Source: a phage. From it: a DNA stretch of 52,202 nucleotides. Position 1 is the stretch's first letter, and each line of letters opens with the position of its first letter. This document shows positions 10,433-52,202 of this stretch, piece after piece. The position numbers were made by a program, and so were the translations under genes. The notes under the pieces are model-generated. The model made no database searches. It was not told where the DNA came from and worked only from the letters and a program-made list of their open reading frames with translations. Location: NCBI GenBank assembly GCA_028524385.1, contig GCA_028524385.1_3661.2, one strand, 5' to 3'.

Positions 10433-10696
10433 TCAGAAACCCTCTAAAAAGCTCTTGTAGAAAACAATCTCAGTATCCACACCAGTCACAATCTTGTCGT
10501 TCCTGATTTCATCGGTAAGATAGGTGTCAAAACGCAGAACCTGTGTGGTGTTGTCACACATCCACTCAGCTGTGACCATTGCGAAAATCTTAGCATCTTC
10601 ATTATCTGGTGTGAATGTTACCACCTCACCGCACTTAAACTTTTCGATAGGCTGAGTGTTAGCTTTCGGTTCTGCGATAGTGATTTTTGTGGTCAT
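10433..10696 (-). CDS. small protein, tandem paralog
   Basis: 87 aa; motif KCGEVVTF aligns with PCGTVVSC / APGTVVMF of neighbours. Confidence 0.45.
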   Translation of the reverse strand: MTTKITIAEPKANTQPIEKFKCGEVVTFTPDNEDAKIFAMVTAEWMCDNTTQVLRFDTYLTDEIRNDKIVTGVDTEIVFYKSFLEGF

Positions 10697-10959
10697 TATT
10701 CTCCTCCTTCTTTTGAATAGCTTGTCTCTCCAAGGATGGTAATTTTGGTGTCAAGCTCTGTAACTTTCATGTTTGGCGGCAGATCGTACAACTCATTATT
10801 TTCTAAATCGAACCCCCACACACAATGTTCTCCTGTTTTGACAATCATAACTATGTTTTGAATACCGTCTCCGTCGCAACTTACCACGGTCCCACACGGA
10901 AAACTGTCTGCACGCTTTTTGTTCTTCACTTTAGAATTGAATACAATGCTAGTAGCCAT
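10696..10959 (-). CDS. small protein, tandem paralog
   Basis: 87 aa; MAT...KK...GTVV...GFDL...LP...E.D..I.ILGE pattern shared with 10959..11222. Confidence 0.45.
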   Translation of the reverse strand: MATSIVFNSKVKNKKRADSFPCGTVVSCDGDGIQNIVMIVKTGEHCVWGFDLENNELYDLPPNMKVTELDTKITILGETSYSKEGGE

Positions 10960-11222
10960 TATTGTTCCTCCACCATAACTTCGCCAAGAATTTCTATGCA
11001 GGCATCCATTTCTGTAACAACCAAACTGTGAGGTAGTTCTACAAACACCTTTCTGAACAGGTCAAATACCCCAACATATATGTTTGCAGGATGTGATTTT
11101 ACAACAAGTGCTGTATTCACATCCCCAAGTTCATCAACAAACATCACCACAGTGCCTGGAGCTACTGAGGACAGATACTTCTTAGTTTTACGGTTTGATG
11201 CAAATTTTAACTCTGTTGCCAT
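10959..11222 (-). CDS. small protein, tandem paralog
   Basis: 87 aa; same length and conserved residues as 10696..10959; ATGA start/stop overlap. Confidence 0.45.
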   Translation of the reverse strand: MATELKFASNRKTKKYLSSVAPGTVVMFVDELGDVNTALVVKSHPANIYVGVFDLFRKVFVELPHSLVVTEMDACIEILGEVMVEEQ

Positions 11223-11237
11223 AAATAACCTCCTCTC

Positions 11238-12719
11238 TTACTTAGCGTACTCGATTAATTCCACAGTTTTCCCAAAGCTCGGGATATAATTTTTATTATA
11301 CCCTTCGGTTAGAACCCATAAAGTATCGTACTTTTTCCACTTGTTGTCAACAGCCTTTTGTTCAAAGTTATGCTCAAAGTATAGGTCGGTCAGGACGATG
11401 ACATCTTTTGCATTCGGTATGTTGGCATCCAGATACTCGAACACGCAAGCAGCTGTTGTGCCCCATGTTGAGTGGACCTCATAGTTAATCATCTCGTCTA
11501 TGTTGCCGCGAGTGTATACTTTAACCTCTCCAACCTCAGTTGACCAACAGAACATTGTAACCTTAAACTCTTTATACAGATTGCACAATCCGGTGATTTC
11601 ATTGAACATTTTCTTTAAAGTTCTTTGAGAGATCGAGCCAGAAACGTCTAAAGCCACCACAATATCTATAGTGTTTTCCGGATTACGACCAGGAACAATA
11701 ACGTGCTGGTTCTTGTTTATAGCCCCAACTTTTCGCATTGTGCTGGTCAAAGACCCAGATCGGCGACCAGGTTTTCTGTAGGTCAGTTCAGCCTTTCGTT
11801 TAGACAACATGCGTTGCTTAATGATGTCTATATAGTTGATTACAGGCTTACCTCTGTTCTTGACAAACTCACGCACCGCCTCGGGGCAACGGCCTCCGGA
11901 CGCTTGCATTGCTGCCTCCAGCATATCACCAGAGTCCTGCATGGCCTGATCTTTATCAGATTGGCTGATTACAGGTTGTGGCTGATCATACCCCATAGCT
12001 TTTCCAAGATCATCACTGGTGCCACCGTTCCCACTCATGTGATCATCTGTTTGTCGCTTATCACCTTGAGAGTTCTCACCTTTACCGTTCTTACTTTTAC
12101 CGTTATTCTGATCTCTTTGCTTATCAAGAACTGCATAAACGTTCTCAGCAATCCATCCATGAAACTTCATATCGCAGTAGCAGCTGGCTAAGAAGCCAAA
12201 AGGCTTACCTTTCACGAACGTAGTGCTTTTCCCCTTCGGGAAGAAAACACAAGGAGGCTTGCTAAAGTCCACCACAAGTCCTGTGTTGATAACGTGATCA
12301 CAAGCAATATTGAACAGTTCCGGCTCAAAGCTTTTACCACGGACCAGGTGATCACAGATAATATGCCCCACCTCATGCGACAGAAGAAAGGCCACCTCTT
12401 TCACAGATTTGGGGGAATAGAAAACCTCAGCCATCTCAAACTGCTCGTCAGTTAGAGAAGCCTTAAGAATAGCCTTACGTTCATCAGCCAACCCCATAAT
12501 GAACTCAGGACTGTAATAGATGCGTTTATGGTCGGTTGCCATGGTGGAGCACCATGTATGGTTTTCTACGAACTGCAATCCTGACAGCAGTGTGCCATAA
12601 AACGGCAGCTTTTCAAGGAGATACATACGTGCAGCCTGCAACATTCTCAGGGCATCATCTTTTTGTGAGGCAATGATTTCTGAACTTCTGATATCCATTA
12701 AAACTCCAGAAGGGGCCAT
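11238..12719 (-). CDS. vWA-domain protein with HExxH metallopeptidase-like motif
   Basis: HEVGHIICDH (HExxH) in N-terminal half; MIDAS-type DxSxS motif VVALDVSGSIS in C-terminal half; 493 aa. Confidence 0.55.
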   Translation of the reverse strand: MAPSGVLMDIRSSEIIASQKDDALRMLQAARMYLLEKLPFYGTLLSGLQFVENHTWCSTMATDHKRIYYSPEFIMGLADERKAILKASLTDEQFEMAEVFYSPKSVKEVAFLLSHEVGHIICDHLVRGKSFEPELFNIACDHVINTGLVVDFSKPPCVFFPKGKSTTFVKGKPFGFLASCYCDMKFHGWIAENVYAVLDKQRDQNNGKSKNGKGENSQGDKRQTDDHMSGNGGTSDDLGKAMGYDQPQPVISQSDKDQAMQDSGDMLEAAMQASGGRCPEAVREFVKNRGKPVINYIDIIKQRMLSKRKAELTYRKPGRRSGSLTSTMRKVGAINKNQHVIVPGRNPENTIDIVVALDVSGSISQRTLKKMFNEITGLCNLYKEFKVTMFCWSTEVGEVKVYTRGNIDEMINYEVHSTWGTTAACVFEYLDANIPNAKDVIVLTDLYFEHNFEQKAVDNKWKKYDTLWVLTEGYNKNYIPSFGKTVELIEYAK

Positions 12720-12731
12720 TGGCCCCTGTCA

Positions 12732-13775
12732 TTATTTAACGTGTTTGAAAATACCTGCCAACTCGGTCATTGTCATGCGGGTGGTCTTCATAAGATCTGT
12801 CATAGCTTTCTCCATAATTGGAGATACTACCATAAAGTTTCCTTTAGTGAAACCTTTATTCCAGTCGGTCACCAACAGTGGTTTAAGTCCAGCTCCAAGA
12901 CGTTCACCAGTTAAAGCACAGCATTTGCGAATATACGAACTCTTAAATTGGCTGAACGACAGATCAACTTTCATACCTACATCGTAGAACGTTTGACAAT
13001 AGAAAGTGTAAGCTTTGGCAATCTCAACATCATCAGGTAGTGCAGGAACCTCTTCTGTAAGCTCCTCTTCGACCTCCTGAGTCTCTTTTTCCTCTTCATG
13101 CACCTGTTGCGTCATTTCTTCAATCTCTTCTGTGATAGGCTCGTTTACAATGTCGGAAATGTGCTTCTTGGGTGCACGATAAGTAACTTTAGACATCGGT
13201 AGCATATCTTCCTCCTCTTCTTCGTCAAAGAGTGCTAGTTTATCCTCTTCCGTTCCATATTGCAAGATGAAATCTTCAAAAGTATAATCACCTTTCAATT
13301 TCTCCATACGCTCTTCGCTCAGGTGGAGCATCATCTGCTGGACAATTTTTCGATCAGTTTCGTCTTTAATCAAGACTGCAGTCTTTTTATCTACCAGACA
13401 GTCCTTTAGAGAGTTGCATCTCAATCCCACCACACAACAGTTATCAACCGCATAAGGACCTTCATCATCTATCCGCTCCAGAGATGGGTAGAAAGGATTT
13501 CCCAGCCCGTTTTCATCTGTGTGCATGTCAAAAGGTATAAGGGTATAGTCGCATACTCCATCTCCTAAAAGTTTTTTACCAAATAGGAGGTATTCTTCCC
13601 ATGACAGGTCGAACTCTATATCTCGTTTCCGTGCATTATTCTGTTTGCGTCTATATTTTTTGAGCAAGCGCTCTAACTCTTCTGGTGTATAATATTTTTC
13701 AAGATTCATGAGTCGTCTCTCGTGCTCTGTAAGTGAAGAAATCGTATCAATTGTCTCAACAGATGTCAACATCAA
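12732..13775 (-). CDS. HNH-endonuclease-like protein fused to an unrelated C-terminal segment
   Basis: N-terminal ...ARKRDIEFDLSWEEY...CDYT...SLERIDDEGPYAVDNCCVVGLRCNSLK resembles HNH-type homing endonucleases; internal MSKVTYRA at residue 194 is encoded by a 29-bp sequence repeated inverted at 15035. Confidence 0.45.
   Translation of the reverse strand: MMLTSVETIDTISSLTEHERRLMNLEKYYTPEELERLLKKYRRKQNNARKRDIEFDLSWEEYLLFGKKLLGDGVCDYTLIPFDMHTDENGLGNPFYPSLERIDDEGPYAVDNCCVVGLRCNSLKDCLVDKKTAVLIKDETDRKIVQQMMLHLSEERMEKLKGDYTFEDFILQYGTEEDKLALFDEEEEEDMLPMSKVTYRAPKKHISDIVNEPITEEIEEMTQQVHEEEKETQEVEEELTEEVPALPDDVEIAKAYTFYCQTFYDVGMKVDLSFSQFKSSYIRKCCALTGERLGAGLKPLLVTDWNKGFTKGNFMVVSPIMEKAMTDLMKTTRMTMTELAGIFKHVK
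13173..13201. repeat. 29-bp perfect inverted repeat, left copy
   Basis: tgcacgataagtaactttagacatcggta is the exact reverse complement of 15035..15063. Confidence 0.8.
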
Positions 13776-13782
13776 AAACGTG

Positions 13783-13811
13783 TTGACTTTACTCTAACTC
13801 CACAATATAGT
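13783..13811 (+). promoter_or_regulatory. sigma70-type promoter at strand-switch region
   Basis: TTGACT-17 nt-TATAGT, about 40 nt upstream of ATG 13852 (SD aggag). Confidence 0.55.
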
Positions 13812-13851
13812 GCACCCATTCGAAAGAAAACTAACATAGGAGCACTTACTT

Positions 13852-14751
13852 ATGGCAAATCTTAACAGTTTTAGTACGCGGTGGAAACAGGACATAACAA
13901 CCAATCTTTCAGCTGGGGACATCCTTTCTGCAATTTACGAGGCTTTAGATGATAAAGCTACTTCAAAAGCGGTTTGTACCAACCCACTAATTCCTGTAGT
14001 GATGAAGGTTATTGAGCGCAGATTGGTATCTGGGTCTGATAAGTGGACATATTTAGATAATGAAGGACACACCTATTCCAATGGGTACGTCGATATAAAA
14101 GTAGAATACGCGGTATCATACCGCCGGAGCGGTTCTGTAACTTTCAACTTCTCTGGAGGTTTTCGATCTCTGGCTACCTCACCTTTTGTTTCCTCAGAGG
14201 AGAAGTATGAGCTACCATTTCTTTGGATGATGGCTAACGCGACAGGAAAAACCCCCGTTAGCATCCGAGTAAAATACAACTACAACGGATCTAGTAAGAT
14301 CTATGCCGAAAGTGTCTCAGCAAGTTTTTATTTTGTGATGGGGGATGGAATCCTCAAACATATAAAGATGTGCGATATGCATGATGTTATAAATGAAGTG
14401 ACTGATAAGAATGTTCTAGTGAAAGACCTCAACAATTTTTATACACCCGGAGACTATTACGTCAGCCGTCCACTGTGCATCTTTAATGCCGCACACCCTC
14501 TAGGTGAGTATTTGATCGCCAATAGCGATATTGCCAATAACCGCTTCGAGGTAGCAAGAGTTCAGAATGAGGTATTGACATCTTGCAAGAGCGGTGATAA
14601 GTTTACCGAAGAAGAGATGGGTGTTTTAGAAATGATGGGATATAAGTGTAGCCTTTGGGTAGATGAGGTGTTTAATGATTGCATCTATGGACAGGATATT
14701 TACCCATTAAAGAAGTATACTGATACAAGTTTAATTTATGCGAGGGTTTGA
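13852..14751 (+). CDS. hypothetical protein
   Basis: 299-aa ORF, first gene of rightward block, SD aggag. Confidence 0.5.
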   Translation: MANLNSFSTRWKQDITTNLSAGDILSAIYEALDDKATSKAVCTNPLIPVVMKVIERRLVSGSDKWTYLDNEGHTYSNGYVDIKVEYAVSYRRSGSVTFNFSGGFRSLATSPFVSSEEKYELPFLWMMANATGKTPVSIRVKYNYNGSSKIYAESVSASFYFVMGDGILKHIKMCDMHDVINEVTDKNVLVKDLNNFYTPGDYYVSRPLCIFNAAHPLGEYLIANSDIANNRFEVARVQNEVLTSCKSGDKFTEEEMGVLEMMGYKCSLWVDEVFNDCIYGQDIYPLKKYTDTSLIYARV

Positions 14752-14753
14752 CT

Positions 14754-15026
14754 ATGATGAAGGCATGTGGTAATGTATATTACGTCGGTGAACATGTTCA
14801 GGCAGACAGTGTGTGGAAATCTATTAAGTCCACCACTGACGATGCCTTTCTGAGTGGACTATGTTTCCCCAATCCGGGAGACATCCTCCCCCATCCTGGA
14901 GATTTTGTTGTCAACAAGATGGACGGTTATACCGTGTGCCTGATGGTTGAAAAAATCTTTTTAGACACTAGACACAATCACCGTCTTGTGTTAAAATTTC
15001 AAGAATGTAAAATGACAATTGCCTAA
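14754..15026 (+). CDS. hypothetical protein
   Basis: Track ORF 14748..15026; first ATG with SD gaggg at 14754. Confidence 0.4.
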   Translation: MMKACGNVYYVGEHVQADSVWKSIKSTTDDAFLSGLCFPNPGDILPHPGDFVVNKMDGYTVCLMVEKIFLDTRHNHRLVLKFQECKMTIA

Positions 15027-15034
15027 GGAGACCT

Positions 15035-15063
15035 TACCGATGTCTAAAGTTACTTATCGTGCA
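15035..15063. repeat. 29-bp perfect inverted repeat, right copy
   Basis: taccgatgtctaaagttacttatcgtgca; covers start codon and first 8 codons (MSKVTYRA) of gene 15040..15396. Confidence 0.8.
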
Positions 15064-15396
15064 GCTATTTACTGCAATGAACACCCAATCAATAATGATG
15101 GTCACTGCCTTTTTAAAGAAAATCAATTGGGCTGTATTGTCCTCCCTGATGAAGGGGAAGGTTATCTGATTGCATTGACAGGGTTTGAACCTGAGGCTCT
15201 GGAAGCCAATCTGGACTACCTGGTAGAAGAGGGTGCTGCAGACCTGGTTGCCAATGGCCTCTCCATAAGCCTTGACGAAGTAGAGCGCTTCATGGGCAAT
15301 TACCGTGTAGTGCGTGAGTTTACTATCGAGGTGGAAACTCCCGAGTGGAGTAGCACTGAAACTAATGCCGAAGAAAAAGAAGAGGAGGTAGAATAA
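15040..15396 (+). CDS. hypothetical acidic protein
   Basis: ATG 15040 with SD aaggag 9 nt upstream (track ORF starts at upstream TTG 15019); begins MSKVTYRA. Confidence 0.45.
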   Translation: MSKVTYRAAIYCNEHPINNDGHCLFKENQLGCIVLPDEGEGYLIALTGFEPEALEANLDYLVEEGAADLVANGLSISLDEVERFMGNYRVVREFTIEVETPEWSSTETNAEEKEEEVE

Positions 15397-15653
15397 TGAA
15401 AATACAGATCTTGACTAATGCCGAGAAGATGTTTATTGAAGATACACCTTTTGAAGCTGGTGAGCTACAGTTCGTTTATTTTGTTGACTTAGATAAGGTG
15501 TTTCCTGCACTGAATCTAGGTTTGGATGAAGTTCCTCATAAGGTTTTGTGCCAAGTTGTTCGTGCCTTAGCGGCAGAGGGGGAGTTCCACACCCTTCAAG
15601 ATGTCCAGACCTACGGGTATCTTGAACTACAACGAGAAGAAGAGGTGGACTGA
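15396..15653 (+). CDS. hypothetical protein
   Basis: 85-aa ORF, start overlaps upstream stop. Confidence 0.4.
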   Translation: MKIQILTNAEKMFIEDTPFEAGELQFVYFVDLDKVFPALNLGLDEVPHKVLCQVVRALAAEGEFHTLQDVQTYGYLELQREEEVD

Positions 15654-15655
15654 TA

Positions 15656-16036
15656 ATGGCTCAGTGGAAGACAACAGTTGACCTTCATGATCAGTGGTTA
15701 GGACGCATCACTGAAGACGGGAAGCTAGTGGAGTGGGACAATAAGCATGTTAGCGAGTTGGCAAGTATTGTGGCTGGCAAGTTACGCTCCAAGTTCCCTG
15801 AACAACTGGATCCTGATAGTTCAAAGTTCGATCCTGAGTTGGAGGATGTTGTATACTACTTCGATACCGTGGATGACTACGATGCGTGGTTTGCAGCACG
15901 GGAGCTTTACCCACAAGGCTCTGCTATGCGCCAGATGGAAGAAGATTATCCTCCGTGTGAGCAATTCAATAGTGCAATGACTTGCCTCTATGATTGGGCA
16001 GATAAGAACCTTGTCTGGATTCGGACTGCATTTTAG
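15656..16036 (+). CDS. hypothetical protein
   Basis: 126-aa ORF. Confidence 0.4.
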   Translation: MAQWKTTVDLHDQWLGRITEDGKLVEWDNKHVSELASIVAGKLRSKFPEQLDPDSSKFDPELEDVVYYFDTVDDYDAWFAARELYPQGSAMRQMEEDYPPCEQFNSAMTCLYDWADKNLVWIRTAF

Positions 16037-16080
16037 TGGGCAGGAATGGCGGCAAGGATGCTGCTTAAGGAGTAGTAGAG

Positions 16081-16350
16081 ATGTTATACCAGCAATATGA
16101 ACTTCGTGCAGAAAAAGAGTTAAATTTTGACAAAGATATTCACAGATATTATTATGGGAAAGTTAGAGGGCAAGCAAGAAAGTGTACTCCAACACTCTTT
16201 TATGCCAGCAGACGACTAGCGCCAGAAGAGGCAACAGCAGAAAGGGTTGCGTACAACTGGAGAGTCACGTATGATATTGACAGATTCGATGTGATATCTG
16301 TTTTGGAAAACTTTGAAAACACTTACACACAAGTAGAGGACTTTTACTAA
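16081..16350 (+). CDS. hypothetical protein
   Basis: 89-aa ORF; stop overlaps next start (TAATG). Confidence 0.4.
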   Translation: MLYQQYELRAEKELNFDKDIHRYYYGKVRGQARKCTPTLFYASRRLAPEEATAERVAYNWRVTYDIDRFDVISVLENFENTYTQVEDFY

Positions 16351-17534
16351 TGTCAAGAAACGTATTCGAAAGTGGTCAAATCACTGTCCGTGAGTTGCCA
16401 GCTATTATTCAGTTTGCCCAACGTCATAGCCGATCTGTCCTAATTTTGGGACCAATGGGTGTGGGTAAAAGCCAGGTGATGAAGCAGATCGCTGATAATA
16501 TGTTCGGTGAGCGAGATGACAACCTTGTTGACGTGCGACTGTCAGATAAAGATCCTGCCGACTTATCTGGGCTACCTATCCCTGTAGAAGCGGATGGAAC
16601 TACACGTACAGTGTTTGCAATTCCAGAATTTTGGCCTGCGGATCCTGACTGGAGCGGAATTATCTTTCTGGATGAGCTCACTCATGCAGATAACTACCTG
16701 CAAAAGGTTGCAATGCAAATTATGCTTGACCACAAGTGCGGCACCTATGCATTCCCTAAGGGTTCTGTTTTTGTGGCTGCGGGTAACCGTTCTACAGATG
16801 GTGCGGTTCTTTCGGCGCTCGAAGCCCCTCTGGCTAACCGTTTTATCATTGTAGAGGTTACAAGCAATGCAGAGGTGTTTATTGAGGACTACGCATTCCT
16901 CAACGGGGTTCACTCCTCTGTAATTGGGTATCTGAAAAGAGTTCCATCAGCTATTGATAATTATGAGGCTATGGCTGAGATTAATTGTCCATCTTTTGCC
17001 ACACCACGATCTTGGGTTGCTGCATCTGACATCTTGCACGATTTTGACAGCGGTATTATTTCTGACGCTATGGCCCGTGTTCTTCTGCAAGGTGCTATTG
17101 GTCACACTGCAGCGGTAGAGATCTGGACATACCACACCAAGAAACGCAATTTACCGGAAATCGGTCGGATTATGGCAGGTGGCTGCAAAGAATACGTAGG
17201 TCCTAAGCAGCCAGACATTTTGTGGATTCTTGGATCTGAAGGTTGTATCGCTATTCGTAATATGATGGAAAATGCAAGTATCTCAGACGAAGATCTTGTC
17301 AGCTGCGTGGCAAACTTCCTCGATTTCCTTTGGGAAAACTTCAAGGACGAGAACCGAGATTTTGTATTCTCAGTCTTTATGGCGATGATGAAACCTAATG
17401 CCTTAGGAAATGCCTTGCTTATAGGTAAAGGGCGTGACAAGATTGTTGCTCAGCTGATCAAAGCATACCCAAACCTGATGAAGATTGTAAAAGAGTTTGG
17501 TGAAGAGTTTAGCGCCATTTTGGCTAAAGCTTAA
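16350..17534 (+). CDS. AAA+ ATPase, MoxR-like
   Basis: Walker A LILGPMGVGKSQV, Walker B IIFLDELTHA, sensor region VFVAAGNRSTDGAVLSALEAPLANRF typical of MoxR/CbbQ-type AAA+. Confidence 0.6.
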   Translation: MSRNVFESGQITVRELPAIIQFAQRHSRSVLILGPMGVGKSQVMKQIADNMFGERDDNLVDVRLSDKDPADLSGLPIPVEADGTTRTVFAIPEFWPADPDWSGIIFLDELTHADNYLQKVAMQIMLDHKCGTYAFPKGSVFVAAGNRSTDGAVLSALEAPLANRFIIVEVTSNAEVFIEDYAFLNGVHSSVIGYLKRVPSAIDNYEAMAEINCPSFATPRSWVAASDILHDFDSGIISDAMARVLLQGAIGHTAAVEIWTYHTKKRNLPEIGRIMAGGCKEYVGPKQPDILWILGSEGCIAIRNMMENASISDEDLVSCVANFLDFLWENFKDENRDFVFSVFMAMMKPNALGNALLIGKGRDKIVAQLIKAYPNLMKIVKEFGEEFSAILAKA

Positions 17535-17544
17535 GGGGGGTTGT

Positions 17545-17925
17545 ATGGCTAAAGTAGGTAAGCGGGGAAACTACCTGGTGGTATTGACCGAGGAGCCGGA
17601 GAAGGAGTACGAATGCAGCTCCACTTGCGTGATCGATATCCGAGAAAAAGATGTAGATGAAATCTGGTTTAAAATATTGGACGCTTGCGATAGCAGTGAT
17701 TATTTCTTCATTTATGTCAACGATAAGGCTGGATTCTTCCATGACGACGGAGAGTTGCCGTATGAAATCTATGAACTTGTAGAGGCTTGCCATCGTGGAG
17801 ATGCGGAGTTGTTTGGCCTACGGCTGAAAAGCGGTAAATTCTTCTATCAAGATGAGTGCATGAATCTTCATAACTTTGTAGAGGGAACTTGCAACGATGG
17901 AGAGATTTTGGCACACTACGATTAA
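17545..17925 (+). CDS. hypothetical protein
   Basis: ATG 17545 with SD aagggggg (track ORF begins at upstream alternative start 17497). Confidence 0.4.
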   Translation: MAKVGKRGNYLVVLTEEPEKEYECSSTCVIDIREKDVDEIWFKILDACDSSDYFFIYVNDKAGFFHDDGELPYEIYELVEACHRGDAELFGLRLKSGKFFYQDECMNLHNFVEGTCNDGEILAHYD

Positions 17926-17936
17926 TTTCTAAGACC

Positions 17937-17965
17937 TCCCCCGCTTCGGCGGGGATTTTCTATTT
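17937..17965 (+). terminator. intrinsic terminator
   Basis: GC stem with ttcg loop (cccccgc-ttcg-gcggggg) followed by ttttctattt. Confidence 0.6.
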
Positions 17966-17974
17966 GGAGTCATT

Positions 17975-18475
17975 GTGAAAATTAAGATCTTTGCTATTAT
18001 TTTGAGCGCACTTTTATCGCTGCCTGTTGTTGCAGCACCAAAACAAAAAGTATATCATACTTGCAAGCCCTCAGATACTAAGGAAAACATTCTGGCATGC
18101 AATATCTACAGGGAGGCTAGAGGGGATGGCACGATGGGTATGCTGGCATCAGGGTTTGCCACACTAAACAGGAAATCTCACCCCAAATACCCAGACACTA
18201 TAAGAAAGATTGTCTACCAACCTAACCAGTTTTCGTGGACAAACCACGGCAAAACTTTTAAGGTGACAGAAAAAGATTCATGGGATCACGCTAAAAGTCT
18301 TGCAAAGATGCTTCTAAAGGTCTATAATAACAACCATGTTGCATACATGGCTATGGACATAACAGGTGGAGCAACACACTACCATACAACCAAAGTACGA
18401 CCGAAATGGGCAAAAAAGATGCAGAGGACAGCTCAATTCGGGAGTCATATCTACTACAAGGAGCGCAATAAATGA
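17975..18475 (+). CDS. secreted cell-wall hydrolase, SleB/CwlJ-like
   Basis: N-terminal signal peptide MKIKIFAIILSALLSLPVVAAP; ...CNIYREARGDG...NQFSWTNHGK... matches SleB-type hydrolase pattern; GTG start with SD ggag. Confidence 0.5.
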   Translation: MKIKIFAIILSALLSLPVVAAPKQKVYHTCKPSDTKENILACNIYREARGDGTMGMLASGFATLNRKSHPKYPDTIRKIVYQPNQFSWTNHGKTFKVTEKDSWDHAKSLAKMLLKVYNNNHVAYMAMDITGGATHYHTTKVRPKWAKKMQRTAQFGSHIYYKERNK

Positions 18476-20454
18476 TTGTAAACAGTAATGAAACTAAAGC
18501 AGTACTAACCGGAAATATGGAGGTCACCAGGGGCTCAATTTCTCTGAACAAAGAGACTTTTGGGCTAATCATTAAAGGGATTTACGAAGATAAGGTGCTG
18601 GCAAGCTGCCGTGAACCAATCTTCAATGCTGTGGACTCCCATGTTGAGTCTGGACGGGGTGATGTACCGATCATCATTCACTCTCCTACAGACCTTGAAC
18701 CATACTTCTTTGTGCAGGACGTTGGATTGGGCATGTCGGAAGAGATGGTCCGCAACACTTTCATGAACCTCGGGGAGTCAACCAAGCGCAACAGCAACGC
18801 TCTGGTAGGTAATAAAGGTGTAGGTTCAAAGGCCCCGTTCAGCATGGTGGACACTTTCGATGTGATCAGTGTGCACAACGGTGTTGAAAGCACATATCTG
18901 TTGTTCTTGGATCAGGGTATCCCAAACGTTACCAAGATCCGCGAGCGAAAGACTGAAGAGCACAACGGGGTAAAAGTTCAGTTCCATGTTAAGAAAGAGC
19001 ATGTTCTGAAATATCGCACTGCTATTGCGTCATGCCTACGCTATGCAAAGTTTCCGTTTACCGTTACCGACCCTATGACCAGTAAGATGCTGGAAGGTGA
19101 CAAGGTTGAGGCGCAGTATCGCTACGAGAAAGATGGTTGGAAAATGACTATCCTGAAAGGTTATACCAGCTCTGATGAGAGCCGTGTGGTGATGGGACAC
19201 CAACCTTACCGCTCTAAGTTTCTGGAAACATTGACAGACTACCCTGCAATCTGTGTAGAGATCCCTATCGGGGATTGCAATATTAACCCTGGGCGCGAAT
19301 GGACCATAGAGGGGCACGACGATGGTGGATTCCAGGATCGCCTGGAGGCCTTTGTCAAAGAAGGTATACGTCTTCGTGGGGCAGAAGTTGTTGCGGAATT
19401 GGAGACAGCAAAAACATCCTCAGAAGCACGTGAGATGATGAAGAACAGTGGAGTGTTCGGACACATCTTCGGCAAAAACTTTATGTGGAACCGTTGGGAA
19501 GAAACAGGGCTTGGCGACTTAGGCGATTGTGAAATTTTCGCTGGCGGCTTAAATAAAGGCCGCATAGGCTATGCTCGTTACGGAAAGTCGGAGTTCTTAC
19601 GAGGTGTATACCTTGTATTTAACGACGGAGACGGCAAATATAACCGAAATAAGTGTAACTACTTAAGCGAGATCACCGGACGCAACGTTTTCTATTGCCG
19701 TAACACGGATCTGATGGAAGAGTTTAAAGAAGCGGCACACCACCCGTTCTTTGCAGATACGGTCAAATTGTTATCAGAGCTCCCTCGCCGTCCTGTAAAG
19801 AAAGGTGAAACAAAAACTCACTATGAGCCAGGGTATTGGGTTAAAAAACTTGAGAAAGATGGTTACTTCCGTCGTGAGCGTATTACTAAGGCAGAGTTCA
19901 AGAAGATTAAGCACTGCATTCCTTATGAGGGTGATATCCAACGTGGAAGTTGTTGGCTGGGACAGCTAAGTAACATCTACCAGCAAAATTATGACCGTGT
20001 GCGTGCGGCACTCCAGATTCCTGAAGGGGAAGATCTGTACCTGGTATCAGAATCTCGTCTGCTTTGGACTGATCCTGATTGCCAGTATGTTACAGAGAAA
20101 AATGTGGAACATTTGTTGAAAGAGGATGCCTGGAAATTCTTACTGACTCGCGCAGCAAATGAAACTTCATATGACAGCCTGTATAGACAATTAGGGAAAA
20201 TTATCCCCATGCAAGATTTTGGAAATTATCGGCCACATTTCCACAAGTGGGAAGGTAACACCGCGTGGAAGCACAGTGAGCTAAATCATCGTGCCAAAAT
20301 CTTAATCGCCAACCGAGTCAAGTGCGGGAAGGCCTATATTGCAAGATTGGAAAAGAAATATCCACTTTTGAAGCATGTGGGCTTGAAATATTGGGACACT
20401 CCTGCTATGATTGAATACCGTGAACTGATCGACGCAAAGAATAACACCAAATAA
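18472..20454 (+). CDS. GHKL-superfamily ATPase (Hsp90/MORC-like ATP-binding fold), function unknown
   Basis: N-box IFNAVDS, G1 box VQDVGLGMS, G2-like GNKGVGSKAPFSMVD in N-terminal 120 aa; 660 aa. Confidence 0.45.
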   Translation: MIVNSNETKAVLTGNMEVTRGSISLNKETFGLIIKGIYEDKVLASCREPIFNAVDSHVESGRGDVPIIIHSPTDLEPYFFVQDVGLGMSEEMVRNTFMNLGESTKRNSNALVGNKGVGSKAPFSMVDTFDVISVHNGVESTYLLFLDQGIPNVTKIRERKTEEHNGVKVQFHVKKEHVLKYRTAIASCLRYAKFPFTVTDPMTSKMLEGDKVEAQYRYEKDGWKMTILKGYTSSDESRVVMGHQPYRSKFLETLTDYPAICVEIPIGDCNINPGREWTIEGHDDGGFQDRLEAFVKEGIRLRGAEVVAELETAKTSSEAREMMKNSGVFGHIFGKNFMWNRWEETGLGDLGDCEIFAGGLNKGRIGYARYGKSEFLRGVYLVFNDGDGKYNRNKCNYLSEITGRNVFYCRNTDLMEEFKEAAHHPFFADTVKLLSELPRRPVKKGETKTHYEPGYWVKKLEKDGYFRRERITKAEFKKIKHCIPYEGDIQRGSCWLGQLSNIYQQNYDRVRAALQIPEGEDLYLVSESRLLWTDPDCQYVTEKNVEHLLKEDAWKFLLTRAANETSYDSLYRQLGKIIPMQDFGNYRPHFHKWEGNTAWKHSELNHRAKILIANRVKCGKAYIARLEKKYPLLKHVGLKYWDTPAMIEYRELIDAKNNTK

Positions 20455-27573: not shown

Positions 27574-30500
27574 ATGAGCATGTGGTCTTTCGATTTTGAG
27601 TCATCCGGTTTGCTGGAAGACCCAGATCTTTATTATCACTGCGGCCTGTTTAAAGAGCTGAATAAGAACCGTTTTATGCTGTTCCTTCCTCTAAATGACC
27701 GCACACACTACTCTGAAGAGGATATAGAGAAGGCTAAGAACTTTATTCTGGCAAAGAAAACTCTTTATAAAGATTTTGAAGTTCGCATAGCAGATTTTTC
27801 AGAGTTGGAAGGTTGGCTTACAGGAAATTCTGACTGGTCACCCACAGCTTTGAACTGCCACAACTGCTACAGCTACGACTTTATGCTGATGGAGAGATTG
27901 TCCGGTATTCATTTTGATATGTTCCGTGACCCTAAGTGTATGGGGACTATCAACGACCACCAGGTTAATCTGTTTGATACGTTGGCGATGAGCCGAATCT
28001 TGTGGCCTGATCGCCCTTTACCAAAAGGTTGTCCGGACTCTGTATTCAACCCGGTTACTAAGAAAATGCAGCCTGTTGGTCCTCACGGCCTTATGGCATG
28101 GGGCTACGCCCTTGGTAACCAGAAAGTTCAAATTGATGACTGGCGCGATCTTCCGTTGTGGAAGTATGTGGATCGTGTATTCGAGGACGTTATCATCCAG
28201 GAGCTGCTCTGGAAAGAGCTGGTAGCGGAATCAAAAGGTGTATTCTACGGCAAATCTGACATGCAGAACTTTATGTACGATCCAGCCAAAGAGAAGCCGA
28301 AAGGGTTCAAGAAGATCACCTGGAAGAACGCACTACGTCGAGGCATGCTGCAGCACTTCCTGATGGAGCTGCAGGCCCGTCAGGGTGTATACTTCGACAT
28401 AGATGGAGCTATTGCTTTACGTGACCGTTGCGATGCGTGGATGAAAGAAATCGCTGATCGTGTTGAACCACAACTACCTTTAAAAGAGCTGTCAATGTCT
28501 CAGCGGCCCAAGTTCCCTGAAAAGCCGTTTAACCAAGACGGGACAATCTCTAATAATGGTTGGAAATGGTTAAAAGATAAGCTTGGCTATCCTGTAGACA
28601 TGAGCGCTTTAGATTTCAAAGCCCCGCCTAAGCGAGCATTTACCTCTACAGGAGATGTCAGCAAGATGGGGATAAAATGGTGTGAAGAGATGGGCTGCAA
28701 AGACCCCGATAAGATGGCTGATTTCTTGAGAGGCTATATTAAGGGCACTTCCACACCTCACCCTTTGCCTAAAGAGCTGATGGATCAGGCAATAAGTGAT
28801 CTACAGCAGAAGCGAATGCCGGACTGCAAGATACCTATGAAAATCAGCAATCAGGACGACATTAAGCGGTATCTGATCAGTGCTGGCTGGCTACCGACAA
28901 TGTGGAGAACTAAGGATGTAACTAAAGATAGCAAGAAGAAAGCTCTACCTGATGCGGATGTTGATGCACGAGTATATGCATATATGGACGAGCTTTTAGA
29001 GTCAGAGTATTGTGACCTGATTATCAACTTCTGGAACAAAACTGATGCCAAGTTCCAGACAACTGTGCACAAGTTCCGAAGCTTTCCTAACTCTGAAAGG
29101 ATTAAAAAGGAAGTATTCGGGAAAATACGTAGAAAAGCCAGAGCACTTATTACTTCTCCGCAACTGAAAGATACGTTTGGACACCTGTGTCCGAATCTTG
29201 AAAAATTGAACGGAGAGATGGCTAAAGATATCGTCTTGTGGTTATCATTGCGAAACCGCAGATCAGTCCTTGATCCAATCAAGGAGGATAAGGTTGATAC
29301 TGGTCTTCTTAATCACCCACGTTTGAAGATTGACCATAAGCTTCCTGCTAAAAGCTCTGGATTAACAAACACTTCCAGACAGAAACACAGTATTTGTGCA
29401 AACATGCCTAAACCATCCCCTAAAGTGGTTATGGGTAAAGAGATGCGCAGTCTGTGGGGTGTTCCTCCTGGATACTTTCAGATCGGTATTGACGGGTCCA
29501 ACTTAGAGCAGCTTATCGGGGCTTGGGGTGCCTTTGAGTTCGACAACGGCCTGTATTACGATGTTGTAAGTAACGGCGATGCACATTGTTATTCAGGAGA
29601 TACACAAATTCTCACGGAGAAAGGGTGGGTGAGGTTTGAAGATCTTGATCCGGGAACACAAGTGTTCCAGTACGATCACAACACCTCGTCAATGAACCTT
29701 GTTACTCCATTAAATTACGTTAAGCGTAGTTATTATGGAGATATGTATCATTTCCACAACAGTAGTGTGGATTTTATGGTTACAGATCAACACAGGATGC
29801 TGACTGTGGATCACAGAAGCAATAAATTGTTTGAAGATTTGGCAAAAGACCTGAAAGCAGGTAAAGGGTCTAATTCAGGAAGAAGGTTTATCCATGCGGC
29901 AGAGTTTTATGGGAATACAGCCTTATCTCCTGCCCAGGTTAATTTGCTTATTGCTATTCACGATGATGGGCACTTGCATACAAATAAGGACGGCAGCATC
30001 GTGTGCAGGATTCAGGTCGGAAAGGGAAGAAAAGTTGCAACGCTTTTAGATACTTTTTCTGCTCTAAGCCTTAGTTATGTAGAGCAGAGCGGGAAAACCA
30101 CAAAAGGAGGCTTACTGGCGAGAAGGTTCCAATTCCACGTTCCGTCTTGGGTATTTGAGTTTTTGGACAGCAATAAGGATTTCACCTACAACCTGATGAA
30201 CCTTGATAAAGAATCTAAAAACCTGTTTATAGCTTCTTTATCTAACTGGGACGGGTGGGTATCTTCAGAAGGTGGAAAGGTTGCTTACTACTCCCAGGCC
30301 GAGTGTAGGAAGAAATCTGTAGAGGTGGTGTCTGCGCTGGCTACTCAGTGTGGTTTACGGAATAATACGGTGGCGATTCACAAAAAAGGTCGTGCCGTGC
30401 AGCACAGAATCACAATTGGTAGCAAACAGAGAGCAGGGTTGCTGACACTATCTAAAGAGTCTGTCGAGGTGAGCGGTTCTTTGGTTTATTGCGTTACCGT

Positions 30501-30966
30501 CCCTTCTGGAGCAATCATTGTGAGAAGGAATGGTAAAGTGGCAGTGTGCGGTAACTGTAATAACGCCAAAGCTTACTCTTCTGTAGCAGGCAAGGAGATT
30601 TCCCGTAACGATGGTAAGCCTATCACGTATGGGGTTATGTACGGGGCACAAAAAGATAAAGTTGCAGATATGCTGGACATCTCTCCAGAGTTGGGACAAA
30701 GGGTAATCGATGCACTCTGGGATGCCAACCCTGGTCTCAAGGGGCGCAAAGAGGATCTGGAGAAATTCTGGGAAGCAACTGGTAAGAAGTTTATCTACTC
30801 TTTTGATGGTCATGCTATCTGGACCAGATCTAAACACTCTTTACTTAATGCATACCAACAGAATGGTGGTGCATCGCTGTGTGACTTAGTTGGGATACTT
30901 ATGCACCACCAAATGGTGAAGCGTGGGTGGTACGATGAAGGTGTTCGTCGTATTATTTATTACCAT
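27574..30966 (+). CDS. family A DNA polymerase (T7 gp5-like), exon 1, containing an intein
   Basis: Exo I FDFE, HCG and HGLMAWGYALG as in T7 gp5 exonuclease domain; motif A IDGSNLEQL...NGDAH; motif B-like GKPITYGVMYG after intein; track ORF continues 2 codons into the intron to stop at 30972. Confidence 0.75.
29587..30555 (+). mobile_element. intein (323 aa) with LAGLIDADG-type homing endonuclease domain
   Basis: Inserted after extein ...SNGDAH; starts CYSGDTQILTEKGWVRFEDL; two LAGLIDADG-like motifs (LLIAIHDDGH, LFIASLSNWDGW); ends VYCVTV...VAVCGN followed by +1 Cys; flanks align to T7 gp5 NGDIH|TKNQ...RDNAKTFIYGFLYG. Confidence 0.65.
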
Positions 30967-31242
30967 AAATAACATTGTGGCTTCATAGAGTAATCTATGT
31001 CGAATAACCTCTTTAACTGCGGGAAGCCTAAACCTTATGGCAAGGTAATCCGCAACGAAGCGCTCAAAAGAGCGAACGCTCAGAGGCCATTCCGAAAGGA
31101 AGTAGACCAGCAAGTGCGGTCGAAATGGGAGGATTCCTGTGGTTGCTTATCATAGGAATATGAGATGGTCCGATCCTACGTGAAAACGTATGGCTATGCA
31201 CGTAATGGTGCGGGGTAGCTTAACGACCTACCTGAACTATTG
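30967..31242 (+). ncRNA. group I self-splicing intron (ORF-less) in DNA polymerase gene
   Basis: 276 nt between exon U30966 and terminal intron G31242; P/Q/R/S core elements aactgcgggaag, aatccgcaacg, cagaggcca, gagatggtcc; IGS gugg can pair with exon end ccau. Confidence 0.65.
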
Positions 31243-39554: not shown

Positions 39555-39865
39555 TATTTTAAGTTATCAGGTTGCCAGAGATCAGGAGGATTTCTAAAAT
39601 GGATTTCCTCCTTTTGATATTTTACCTGCCATGATATTTTAAAATCCTTAGAAAATCAGAAAATGGATCGAAAACTAAAATGGATTTTTCAGAGTAGGCG
39701 CGACAAGCTGAATCACTCATCCTATCGTTTGCACCATATTCCAGACCACCATTACAGATTTCCCGCACATGCTTACATCTCGCTACTAGAACTTCCTCCA
39801 CTCACCCTTGACCTTTTATAGCAATAATCCAACCACTATCTTGAAGTTGCGGTGCAGCTTTCCAG

Positions 39866-39887
39866 GTACTCGATCTGTTTTTCGTTT
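39866..39887. repeat. 22-bp direct repeat, copy 1
   Basis: gtactcgatctgtttttcgttt repeated exactly at 39931..39952. Confidence 0.75.
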
Positions 39888-39930
39888 CAAATATTGAATT
39901 TTCTGAAAATTTTTCTCGATAAATTTCTCA

Positions 39931-39952
39931 GTACTCGATCTGTTTTTCGTTT
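39931..39952. repeat. 22-bp direct repeat, copy 2
   Basis: Exact copy of 39866..39887; surrounded by recurring aaaatggat and ttttctgRaaat words. Confidence 0.75.
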
Positions 39953-40188
39953 TCTGAATCGGATTTTCTGGAAATCGTTCCGGATCTCGACCTGAAATTT
40001 TTGGGGACGAAATCGATTTTTCGTTTTCAGAAATGGATTTTTAAAATTTGTATATGGAAATATTTTAGGAGGTATTATTTTATATAGAATTGTCACGGTA
40101 GGTAATTAGCATGCTAACTAAATTTATGAAATGCGAAAAGTTCTCATTTAGAACTTTGAATGATAATCATTCTCGTTTGCAGAATAAC

Positions 40189-40230
40189 GGGCAGGCCCGG
40201 TGATTGTCTCCCGGCCCCTGTTGCCCCGGC
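40189..40230. repeat. GC-rich structured element E1
   Basis: gggcaggcccggtgattgtctccc... ; core ccggtgRttgtctccc shared with E2 and E3. Confidence 0.5.
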
Positions 40231-40328
40231 TTGTTATTATAGTATCACGCAGGACAAAGAAGGCAAGGATTTTTTGCATAAATTTTTAAATGATAATGAT
40301 AACCGTTCTCATTTTATGCATCGCCCAT

Positions 40329-40365
40329 CCCCGGTGGTTGTCTCCCCCGTCACCGGTGCCTGCCG
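40329..40365. repeat. GC-rich structured element E2
   Basis: ccccggtggttgtctcccccgtcaccggtgcctgccg; near-identical to reverse complement of E3 (49271..49322). Confidence 0.55.
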
Positions 40366-40443
40366 TCCTTTCGATAGGTATATTGTGCCACCTGGCGGGG
40401 TCGCTGTCAACACCTTTTCGAAAAAAAAAAATTATAACCAGGT

Positions 40444-40492
40444 GCGCCCACCGCCAGGACCTGGCGGCGGGGCCAACCTGGCAGGTCCGCGC
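40444..40492. repeat. GC-rich element E4 with 17-bp palindrome
   Basis: ccgccagg-a-cctggcgg perfect palindrome; CCTGGCGG word recurs at about 40391, 40653 and 49282. Confidence 0.45.
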
Positions 40493-40707
40493 TATAAAGT
40501 GAACAGCTGAAGAAGAGGTACATAAATGAAAGGTAATATTATCCACCTGGGGAAATATAGTAATTAATGGCACGTGAGCTATCCTCCCTGGTTGAGAGGG
40601 CTAAAACTGAAGCGTTGGAACATAAAGAAGAATACGAAAAAATGATGGTTAACCTGGCAGGGGCGGCGGCTGGAGAATTCTACCCAAAAAATAATTTTAC
40701 ATAATGG

Positions 40708-50164: not shown

Positions 50165-50584
50165 ATGAATATTAAATCTAACAATCCCGCATACAGCTTT
50201 GATAACGCTTTTTGTCACGGCCCAGCCGCAAAAGGTTTTGAAATTGATGGTAAACTGGTTATTGTGAATGTTGACGGGGAAGAGGTTGCAGTATATCCGG
50301 TGGCAGACGTTAAAAGCCGTTTACAATGCCGCATTGATGTTACCGCATATCAGCTTGATCCGGTCCGCGTAGTTGCCCTGGTCCTGGAGGAAGAGATCAA
50401 AGCCATGCATCATAGCAACAAGTTTATCGGTGACGCGCAAGATAATATGAAGGTATGCCGCCATAAAGTTAACGAAGTTCTTAAAGAATACGGCTTCAAA
50501 GATCTGATGATCAAGCGTGATGAAAAATTCCGCTATCGTAATGACCTGGCAAATCGAATCTATCAAATATACGAATCATTATAA
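50165..50584 (+). CDS. hypothetical protein
   Basis: 139-aa ORF with SD agaggtaaa. Confidence 0.45.
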   Translation: MNIKSNNPAYSFDNAFCHGPAAKGFEIDGKLVIVNVDGEEVAVYPVADVKSRLQCRIDVTAYQLDPVRVVALVLEEEIKAMHHSNKFIGDAQDNMKVCRHKVNEVLKEYGFKDLMIKRDEKFRYRNDLANRIYQIYESL

Positions 50585-50602: not shown

Positions 50603-50630
50603 AGGGGCTTTAAAAGGCCCCTTTCTTTTT
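50603..50630 (+). terminator. intrinsic terminator
   Basis: aggggc-loop-gcccct followed by ttcttttt; last terminator before non-coding terminal region. Confidence 0.65.
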
Positions 50631-51238
50631 GTCTGTATTTCTCCTACCACAAACGGCCCCACCTGGCAAGTGGAATAATTGACTAGCCATCAATCCCACA
50701 CACTGTACAAACATACATATAAAATAGCTATTGCATAATCTTTCATTGTGTGGTAGCAGGGCCATTTTTACACGTTTTTCCTTCCAAAACTACATGTAAT
50801 TCCACTATTGCACAAAATTTAACCTTATGCACAATATCTCTTTCTTGTCAACAACTAAAAATCTTTATAAGTCATACACTTACATAACCACAAAAGCGTG
50901 TTCTACGTGAAAAATCGGGTATAACTATAGCCACTAAATTACAGAATTCACGTAGCGTCACCATTCTATAGTCTGCTAAGTATTTATTCCGACCATAGAA
51001 TAACGGAATAGTCAATACCTGCATAAAATAATTATTCGTGTAAACTGCATAACATAAATCGGCTCAGGTGTCAACATTTTTCGTAAACAGCCTGAAATTG
51101 TCACGGTAAGTTATTATAAGCATATAAATCTTTAGTCGTCTAATGTTTACTGTACATTACTATACTGACTGGAATCATTAGATGACTAAGAGAAAGATAA
51201 GAAATAATTAACAATACAATTATTTTATATGTAACAAT

Positions 51239-51415
51239 AAGGCAACTATGCAAACGAATGGCATGGCGCGACGGAGTCGCGACATAATATAAAAGCAGTA
51301 ACCATCACCCCCGTGATAGTTTGTCTGCAATCTATTATTCAGATCATAGTTGCCTTGTATTTAGTTAATCATGACATAACAAGCAAGGCAACTATAGATC
51401 TTATAATAGTTGCCC
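51239..51415. repeat. iteron cluster: AAGGCAACTAT in alternating orientation (4 copies)
   Basis: Copies at 51239-51249 (+), 51346-51356 (-), 51385-51395 (+), 51406-51415 (-); last two form ggcaactat-N12-atagttgcc inverted pair. Confidence 0.6.
51248..51267. repeat. 20-bp direct repeat, copy 1
   Basis: atgcaaacgaatggcatggc, repeated exactly at 51509..51528. Confidence 0.7.
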
Positions 51416-51508
51416 TGCTTTCATATTATGTCATAGAAACACCCGAAGGGGTGACCAAAGGTCACCTGGCATAGCCAGCGAAAGATTATTAACTTGTTAA
51501 TTATTGTC

Positions 51509-51528
51509 ATGCAAACGAATGGCATGGC
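51509..51528. repeat. 20-bp direct repeat, copy 2
   Basis: Exact copy of 51248..51267. Confidence 0.7.
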
Positions 51529-51569
51529 TTATCATATCTGTATAAATAGTTAGCTATGTAAACAGTCAG

Positions 51570-51626
51570 GCATGTCAATTATGTTCAGTGTGTCACCATT
51601 ATGTCATATTGTGTCAGTTATGTCAG
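51570..51626. repeat. helically phased TGTCA repeats
   Basis: T(A/G)TGTCA occurs 5-6 times at 9-11 bp spacing (about 51573, 51583, 51591, 51602, 51612, 51621). Confidence 0.55.
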
Positions 51627-52202
51627 ACAAGTTTTTCTCCTCTTTGTCAAGTGCTGCATGAAAAATTTACAATCTGGTATGGTAGCATTTTTGCGGCCCC
51701 GTTTACATTCAGTGATGTATGTATAAGCCTTGTTGTGTGGGCGTTTAGACGTCTAGACGGTTGGAAGTCCACAGGTCAATATCTAATCTATCGGCTGCTA
51801 ACTATATCCCACACAAATAGTAAGAAATATAATTGTTATGCGTGTAAACAGTAACTCATGTTATCAATCCCTGTATGTGTCGCCAGTGGTGCGCATAATG
51901 GGTATTATGTTAAATTGCCCGTAATGATAATGGTTCTCACAATGATATGTATTCTCATTCCCCCACACAAAATAGATTGCAAATGTTGTGCCACTATGTG
52001 AACGGCCTCACCTATTAATTTGCCTCACTGCCTCGATATTTGAGAATTGTTATAAGAATGAGAAGTATTCCCATTTCGTCCGCCTGGCAGCACTCCAGTC
52101 GCTACGGCTCATAACAGGGCAGAACCAGTCCTATTCAGATATTTCTGGCTGGCTATTCAGGTCTGTGTGGGAAAAGCCAACCCCTCCGGCGGCGGGGAGG
52201 GG

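Follow-up and report, generated by a model that had tools for sequence, protein, structure and literature searches.

In the general T7-type mechanism of DNA packaging, terminase recognises fixed positions on the phage DNA, and the direct repeat at the chromosome ends is regenerated by extension from staggered nicks (PhageTerm paper); a 2026 review describes the terminal-repeat mechanism as poorly understood even for T7 and T5 (PMC13595956). For the Vequintavirus phages EdH4 and HdK5, which were sequenced with PacBio and linearised where most reads ended abruptly, terminal redundancies of 458 bp have been reported (Korf 2019; PMC6563267). The Klebsiella phage KPP-1 (genus Mydovirus, subfamily Vequintavirinae) has been assigned a 514-bp terminal repeat at 116316-116829, on the basis of doubled sequence coverage confined to those 514 bp and a T7-type call by PhageTerm (PMC9862379). 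The genome of phage rV5 includes a tract with "no observable ORFs" (open reading frames) at 104013-106618, drawn as a grey "non-coding" box in 2013 (PMC3606486). Here we examined positions 50640-52202 at the end of a 52,202-nt stretch of phage DNA (assembly GCA_028524385.1, contig GCA_028524385.1_3661.2; hereafter the window), a gene-free region packed with short repeats. We propose that it is probably the Vequintavirus chromosome-end region, with short exact direct terminal repeats of the T7 type and a cis-acting flank, and that the packaging cut would probably be neither random nor permuted. We observed directly the position of the repeat in relatives with mapped ends, the abutment of a short-repeat array on its edge, the conservation pattern around it and the homology of its boundaries across genera.

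A blastn search with 50640-52202 had matches in 120 phage records (84-94% identity), every one of an rV5-like Vequintavirus myovirus, and a sensitive blastn search for more distant homologues returned only the same 120 records. Judged by these matches, the window is part of the genome of a Vequintavirus, an rV5-like Escherichia coli phage. The rV5 counterpart of the region is the reverse strand of 104855-106563, inside the ORF-free tract, and the region makes up the left 1.56 kb of the approximately 2.5-kb box; in relatives, the non-coding tract runs on past the window edge for a further 0.9-1 kb or so. The annotations of phages Murica and rV5 place it between two converging gene units. For the whole gap in 17 relatives, we evaluated all ORFs of at least 25 aa on both strands for a ribosome-binding site, an intact frame and an excess of third-position substitutions, and no ORF combined all three. 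This result bears out the claim, made in an original prediction from the sequence, that the region holds no credible gene; the rV5 authors likewise saw none (PMC3606486). One 47-aa ORF (51858-52001) had some third-position excess and was rejected, being frameshifted in 4 of the 17 genomes and having no ribosome-binding site.

In the EdH4 and HdK5 records, the first 459 bases are 100% identical to the last 459. These end repeats map to window positions 52084 down to 51626, so that the right third of the interval, which had escaped the original prediction, is the terminal repeat itself. A search with the 459-bp sequence located it at 128 places in 120 records, which means that eight records hold two copies, whereas the window and the other 112 records hold one copy each. 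The two copies sit at the record ends in EdH4, HdK5, YN3 and ECP2309, and the records of Pr121LW, ECP2303, bov10K2 and bov22_2 start or end exactly on a repeat boundary, that of bov10K2 starting on the 52084 boundary. Relatives thus carry the repeat at both chromosome ends and once per concatemer or circular assembly, as expected of a T7-type chromosome. In the window the repeat is bounded by TATGTCA/GACAAG at 51625/51626 and by CGTCCGCC/TGGCAGC at 52084/52085 (slashes within sequences mark the boundaries), and by homology with these relatives the physical ends of this phage very probably map to the same two positions. The original prediction had named 51200-51650 as the interval in which genome ends should be sought; one boundary lies within it, the other some way beyond, and the published relatives with mapped ends do not place their termini elsewhere, the outcome that would have counted against that prediction.

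Conservation across the gap supports the same boundaries. We aligned the window with 17 relatives (18 genomes; all column and genome counts below refer to this alignment) and found that mean conservation of the gap is about that of the flanking genes, yet is sharply partitioned. Within the repeat, 345 of 459 columns are invariant, with only two indel columns and a majority-base conservation of 0.961. Of the 60 columns counted on each side of the first boundary, 51 are invariant within the repeat but only 5 beyond it; for the second boundary the numbers are 48 within the repeat, without indels, and 33 beyond it, where 51 insertion columns were found. Both boundaries are therefore abrupt transitions from conserved to hypervariable DNA, with the indels confined to the outside of the repeat, and the first junction reads ...GTCA/GACAAG in all 18 genomes. 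From these alignments, together with KPP-1 and the start of a Phapecoctavirus record (both compared below), the boundary sequences appear to be constrained and conserved, as would be expected of a T7-type end. A box just inside the first boundary, which is shared with KPP-1, reads on the minus strand TTGTAAATTT-N-CTTGACAA-GAG-AGA-AA-TTGT and then the cut. It is overlapped on the plus strand by a sigma-70-like site, TTGTCA-18-TACAAT (51644-51673), whose promoter function is doubtful because a scoring -10 hexamer is kept in only 7 of the 18 genomes.

The variable spot outside the 52084 boundary takes insertions: phage I29 carries about 600 bp there (about 3090-3720), and the last 60 nt of the bov10K2 record correspond to some 60 bp of extra hairpin-rich sequence at the same spot. 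Such insertions hint that the DNA beside the chromosome end is prone to recombination. Coordinates of all features are listed in Table 1.

Table 1. Features of the chromosome-end region and its borders (window coordinates; column counts from the 18-genome alignment).
Feature	Coordinates	Strand	Remarks
Intrinsic terminator	50603-50632	+	8-pair stem 50603-50622, then TTCTTTTTGT; closes the upstream plus-strand unit
AT-rich spacer, ORF-free, conserved	50640-51238		419/599 columns invariant, 3 indel columns
Nested palindrome block, 196 bp	51239-51434		180/196 columns invariant, 35 indel columns
Hypervariable repeat segment	51435-51625		42/191 columns invariant, 253 indel columns (insertions in relatives)
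Three-hairpin module, optional	51440-51485	-	terminator-like; absent from 10/18 genomes
T(A/G)TGTCA array	51571-51625	+	9-11 bp spacing; last copy ends at the base before the repeat
Direct terminal repeat, single copy	51626-52084		459 bp, assigned by homology to EdH4/HdK5
Boundary box inside the repeat	51626-51673		common to Klebsiella phage KPP-1
15-bp palindrome pairs, TGAKAA-N3-TTMTCA	51925-52073		at 51925, 51943, 52041 and 52059, inside the repeat
Variable segment outside the second boundary	52085-52115		profile variable at about 52087-52115
GC hairpin CCCCTCCCCGCCGCCGGAGGGG, then TTGGCTTTTC	52181-52202	-	terminator-like, from a scan; for the converging minus-strand unit

The DNA leading up to the first boundary falls into three parts. 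The AT-rich spacer (majority-base conservation, 0.946) contains a 14-nt inverted repeat (51132-51145 / 51176-51189), and at 51141-51240, with 22% GC, the least stable duplex of the entire window, a minimum that held at window sizes of 100, 200 and 400 bp. In the nested palindrome block that follows, we found four GGCAACTAT sites in alternating orientation, copy 1 of a 20-mer (51248-51267), a small hairpin CGCGAC-GGA-GTCGCG (51267-51281), outer 18-nt arms (51281-51298 / 51415-51432) lying 194 bp beyond the terminal repeat, and inner 12-nt arms (51346-51357 / 51384-51395). The fold z scores of the block were -8.7 and -8.65 for plus- and minus-strand RNA and -9.3 for DNA; values so similar on both strands are more in keeping with a palindrome acting at the DNA level than with an RNA made from one strand. 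Of the four alternating copies of AAGGCAACTAT reported in the original prediction, those at 51239(+), 51346(-) and 51385(+) are exact, but the copy at 51406(-), AGGGCAACTAT, has one mismatch. No further exact copy occurs within the window; with one mismatch allowed there are seven matches against 1.1 expected, a number reached by none of 100 shuffles. The 20-bp direct repeat ATGCAAACGAATGGCATGGC was described accurately, with exact copies at 51248 and 51509; nothing else in the window comes within three mismatches of it, and copy 2 (51509-51528) is kept in all relatives.

The third part, the hypervariable segment, runs from TTGTTA-type repeats around 20-mer copy 2 through GTAAACAGT-type units (51546-51566) to the TGTCA array. 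The GTAAACAGT-type units number from one to about ten in relatives, with a period of about 16 bp. An array of five to six T(A/G)TGTCA copies at about 10-bp spacing had been predicted: the array and its spacing are there, but only four copies are strict (51589, 51600, 51610 and 51619), and two, CATGTCA (51571) and TATGTTCA (51579), are degenerate. Across the window the T(A/G)TGTCA motif occurs at chance frequency (17 found, 17.8 expected), and TGTCA starts at 51573, 51591, 51602, 51612 and 51621 within the array, a local density of five in 60 bp that exceeds all 200 shuffles (maximum, three). TGTCA copy number ranges from about two to six among the 18 genomes. The TTGTTA, GTAAACAGT and TGTCA units differ even between very close genomes, a variation in copy number and sequence that had gone unseen in the original prediction. 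Because its last unit ends on the final base before the cut in all 18 genomes, the TGTCA array is the best candidate for a packaging-protein binding array, with the palindrome, the outer arrays and the invariant pair of 20-mers as candidates for accessory elements. A role of the repeats in packaging or end formation is a reasonable but tentative reading. A scan of IMG/VR for the 20-mer returned two vequintavirus contigs only, a scan for inverted GGCAACTAT pairs returned 24 further loci, none related to the gap, and a promoter scan of the arrays in the 18 genomes gave inconsistent sites on both strands.

The ggtgacc-aaa-ggtcacc hairpin singled out earlier is present, at 51450-51466, as part of a three-hairpin module (TGGC-TAT-GCCA, GGTGACC-TTT-GGTCACC and CACCCCTTCGGGTG, then TTTCTAT). 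Like the module, it is missing from 10 of the 18 genomes and so is dispensable. Phage I29 has a second copy of the module elsewhere, and its 52 bp also occur in the unrelated E. coli plasmid pE275a_13, with a compensatory change from C-G to T-A in the middle stem. The module is a mobile, terminator-like cassette and does not belong to the core of the region. Apart from these 52 bp, host and plasmid sequences matched the region in short fragments only. The plasmid pE275a_13 (NZ_CP035869.1; module match at 10646-10697) is a circular E. coli "plasmid" record of 13.7 kb, and other strains have siblings of 13.3-13.7 kb. Its genes specify major capsid, tape measure, baseplate and helix-turn-helix proteins; it has two long gene-free gaps and could be a phage satellite or a miniature phage-plasmid.

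These elements suggest how the ends might form. Positions 51626-52084 would represent the single repeat copy of a concatemer or circular assembly, and 50640-51625 the unique-sequence flank of one end. Terminase would cut at or near the two boundary sequences, and fill-in synthesis would duplicate the repeat, leaving each virion DNA with a copy at both ends. Moving outward from the cut, the flank would present the TGTCA array, the GTAAACAGT and TTGTTA arrays around the 20-mer, the palindrome and then the most easily melted DNA, and it probably carries cis signals for concatemer recognition, cutting and repeat duplication. The arrays may be packaging-protein binding sites beside the cut. For the palindrome and AT-rich block, a role as a hairpin or unwinding element is conceivable, perhaps combined with that of a replication start. 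The terminators at 50603 (plus strand) and 52181 (minus strand) would insulate the zone from the gene units converging on it. The former has a counterpart at the equivalent position of the Murica annotation. The latter, which is kept in relatives, is the GC hairpin that the original prediction had correctly noted at the window edge; the window is cut within or next to it.

Several points weigh against a T7-type chromosome end. The ends of this phage were placed through relatives whose repeats are 94-98% identical to its own. No part of the region is less conserved than the arrays next to the cut; such variability would be expected of loosely constrained or slippage-prone DNA no less than of protein-binding sites, and binding of terminase to the arrays is a predicted contact. 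No TGTCA or GTAAACAGT array lies beyond the boundary in KPP-1. Furthermore, two PhageTerm-based studies describe vequintaviruses as "circular permutated" (PMC8407724) or as "headful (PAC)" with partial permutation (PMC13211470). These calls, together with the permutation seen in BAL-31 tests of the related genus Certrevirus, would fit a headful pac site, at which packaging starts here and later cuts are imprecise, giving partly permuted genomes. We consider such a site improbable. Independently sequenced phages have exact, identical 459-bp repeats at both record ends, where PacBio reads stop abruptly, and the doubled coverage of KPP-1 is confined to its repeat (PMC9862379); a headful series would give one fixed cut instead of two sharp boundaries conserved across genera. 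Nor does a small-terminase gene adjoin the region: in Murica and rV5, the genes annotated over 6 kb to the left and right encode small hypothetical proteins, with no terminase among them. The PhageTerm authors themselves warn that transposase-based libraries lose termini. The original prediction had also offered two other functions. A replication origin, at which the arrays and palindromes would bind a phage or host initiator and the AT-rich segment would melt, could coexist with packaging; we keep it as a minority possibility for 51000-51450, because there the least stable duplex abuts the palindrome. An origin would be expected to have such an adjacent AT-rich unwinding element, and 51141-51240, directly beside the near-invariant block, qualifies. 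Some motifs are likewise confined to the region (GGCAACTAT four times, TTATGTCAT three times and CCCACACA five times, versus 0-4 in the other 50.6 kb), and the rV5 authors were unable to locate an origin. By contrast, the repeat cores are 7-9 bp long, with one to about ten copies that vary among close relatives, unlike conserved iterons of 17-22 bp, of which at least three would be expected; the only long repeat is the 20-mer, present twice. The region has no ORF, and a Pfam scan of ten large ORFs (mostly from the upstream unit) found topoisomerase-like, PIF1 and DnaB-like helicase domains but no Rep, O or DnaA-like protein. Among DnaA, IHF, Chi and GATC sites, none was enriched in the region: the DnaA box has one match (50825), the IHF consensus has none, and GATC is depleted. 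In cumulative GC skew the region is a peak instead of a minimum, but the skew is uninformative as an origin test because it follows the direction of transcription.

A partition (centromere-like) site, the remaining function that had been suggested, found no support. Known parS and parC sites can contain phased short repeats, but the phage is a virulent myovirus, and the annotations of Murica and rV5 show no ParA- or ParB-like gene over 6 kb to the left and right. We regard such a site as extremely improbable, and equally so the idea that the long, ORF-free region consists of decayed gene remnants, given that conservation is as high as in coding DNA, with two near-invariant blocks and no residual frame. 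A non-coding RNA locus, with transcription of the conserved tract and RNA hairpins formed by the palindromes, might seem to follow from that same conservation, from the promoter-like and terminator-like sites and from the very stable predicted fold of 51226-51480. Yet low sliding fold z scores occur only at the palindromes, equally on both strands and as DNA, and the rest of the gap is unremarkable. Against Rfam 15, neither the part of the gap within the window nor the complete Murica gap had a match better than E = 0.13, all matches lying far below gathering scores; an Rfam scan of the whole window likewise returned nothing in 50640-52202, and ARAGORN found no tRNA or tmRNA. Pair-by-pair variation offered no informative compensatory changes, because the palindrome block is nearly invariant, and the one plus-strand promoter-like site (51644-51673) is the inconsistently conserved one described above. 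An RNA locus is thus very unlikely. The T7-type chromosome end, the reading that we prefer, retains the packaging function of the original prediction.

One further feature of the terminal repeat led to a more speculative idea. The palindromes at 51925-52073 resemble the core of the E. coli Fur box, TGATAA-TnA-TTATCA. At a threshold of at least 11 of 12 specified positions, TGAKAA-N3-TTMTCA has eight matches in the window, versus 0.78 in shuffles, and four of the eight lie in the terminal repeat. Clusters also occur in the terminal gaps of KPP-1 (six matches) and the Phapecoctavirus phAPEC8 (four). It is conceivable, though doubtful, that the palindrome and meltable DNA duplicate the terminal repeat by hairpin- or nick-primed synthesis and may serve as a replication start, with a Fur-like protein at the ends. 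In that case, a host iron regulator, or a phage protein of the same specificity, might occupy the ends of the chromosome and control early events or packaging; binding of an iron regulator is suggested because the Fur-box-like palindromes recur in the terminal gaps of three genera. If true, these ideas would together amount to a cis-acting grammar by which a large group of therapeutic myoviruses of E. coli and Klebsiella form their terminal repeats. The remaining window copies lie at 40132, 40161 and 40297, in an AT-rich stretch, and at 26225, and the motif occurs once in pE275a_13. That stretch (about 39600-40500) is a second ORF-poor one, with the second least stable duplex of the window at 40032-40131 and repeated units in which a GC-rich hairpin (ggcccggtgattgtctcccggcc / ccccggtggttgtctcccccgtcaccgg) comes after a Fur-box-like palindrome. 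Scans of this stretch for tRNA genes and Rfam families were negative.

We made several other observations around the region and elsewhere in the window. The last gene before the terminal region, a 139-aa ORF (50165-50584) that precedes the plus-strand terminator, shares about 93% aa identity with a homologue in Phapecoctavirus, a genus of a different subfamily, and is missing in some vequintaviruses (pangalan, EdH4). Past the right edge of the window, about 360 bp corresponding to Murica 8054-8412 form the most conserved part of the whole gap, with pairwise identities of 0.96-1.00 across 16 genomes; we found no ORF signature, Rfam match or unusual fold there. Eighteen "Campylobacter phage" records (MG0656xx, host C. 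jejuni) are 95-98% identical to E. coli vequintaviruses across the region, which makes them look like coliphage genomes that were mislabelled or entered as contaminants. A group I catalytic intron (RF00028; 30957-31192, plus strand; 64.7 bits versus a gathering score of 50, E = 3e-14) starts where a 1132-aa ORF of DNA-polymerase size (27574-30972) ends. The polymerase gene is probably split by a self-splicing intron; the ORF also has a weak match to a Hint domain.

The terminal redundancy of vequintaviruses is already published as a length and is embodied in GenBank records. The EdH4/HdK5 redundancy of 458 bp (459 bp in our comparison) is the same element as 51626-52084, with an exact repeat, 95% identity and identical boundaries, but Korf 2019 gives the length only, without assigning the repeat to the rV5 "non-coding" box or describing the flanking arrays, the palindrome or the boundary sequences (PMC6563267). 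Our literature searches found no paper linking the redundancy to that box or describing the flank and boundaries, and no vequintavirus transcriptome or mapped origin. The box, unexplained in annotations since 2013, is thus identified as a chromosome-end region, a result that bears on the conflict among reports of vequintaviruses as circularly permuted, headful or 458-bp redundant. The mode of packaging is relevant to phage therapy and biocontrol, since phages that package exact ends are generally regarded as far less liable to generalized transduction than headful ones. The two boundary coordinates provide anchors for orienting and comparing vequintavirus genomes and mark DNA that engineers must leave undisturbed. 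The boundary boxes, arrays, palindrome and AT-rich block are candidate cis elements at known distances from the cut, for studying how terminal repeats form in large myoviruses.

Among described systems, KPP-1 offers a close comparison. In KPP-1, as in this phage, the repeat lies in a gene-poor gap between converging units, with Fur-box-like palindromes and CTTCAGG motifs. One KPP-1 boundary, gtgcta/GACGGAC, aligns with gctgcca/GGCGGAC here, and at the other both phages have TTGTAAATTT...CTTGACAA.GAG.AGA.AA.TTGT/ in common. A perfect 21-nt inverted repeat lies about 310 bp beyond the KPP-1 repeat, compared with the 18-nt arms here. The two repeats are only about 50% identical overall, and the neighbouring gene units of KPP-1 are inverted relative to rV5. 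A comparison of KPP-1 with window positions 8200-18500 indicated that in Mydovirus the early/replication unit and a short divergent unit are inverted as a block, with the terminal gap still joined to the end of the nucleotide-metabolism unit; the inverted block seems to be delimited by the two sites at which gene units converge.

Phapecoctavirus genomes share with this phage the arrangement of the 139-aa gene homologue, then a terminator, then about 1.5 kb without genes. The record of Mt1B1_P17 starts inside the gap equivalent to that of phAPEC8 and has CAATTCnCAAATATC in common, about 40 nt from the end. No sequence of the gap studied here could be aligned with the syntenic gaps of A73 and phAPEC8. 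Members of the subfamily of Phapecoctavirus are reported to end in direct terminal repeats, one Phapecoctavirus repeat being 328 bp long.

Better-studied systems share some of these features. Iteron origins (lambda ori, plasmid Rep origins and T4 oriE) likewise combine clustered repeats and dyad symmetries with an adjoining AT-rich meltable segment, but this region has no long conserved iterons or DnaA-box cluster and no adjacent initiator gene among the ORFs scanned, and its arrays vary. The hexamers of P1 pac and the boxes of SPP1 pacL resemble the arrays in being short motifs about one helical turn apart beside a terminase cut. In those phages, however, one sequence-directed cut is followed by headful cuts, and pac lies in or beside the terminase genes, whereas this region has two exact boundaries and lies far from any annotated terminase gene. 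In T7, short-repeat arrays flank the terminal repeat on both sides, and a nearby inverted repeat forms a hairpin intermediate; the junction arrays and the hairpin were reportedly described by Dunn and Studier in 1983 and by Chung, Nardone and Hinkle in 1990. The present phage differs from T7 in being a 136-kb myovirus that uses host RNA polymerase, in having no sequence similarity to T7 and in a repeat about three times the 160 bp of T7, but the region resembles the T7/T3 junction in its single repeat copy between genomes, delimited by two precise boundaries.

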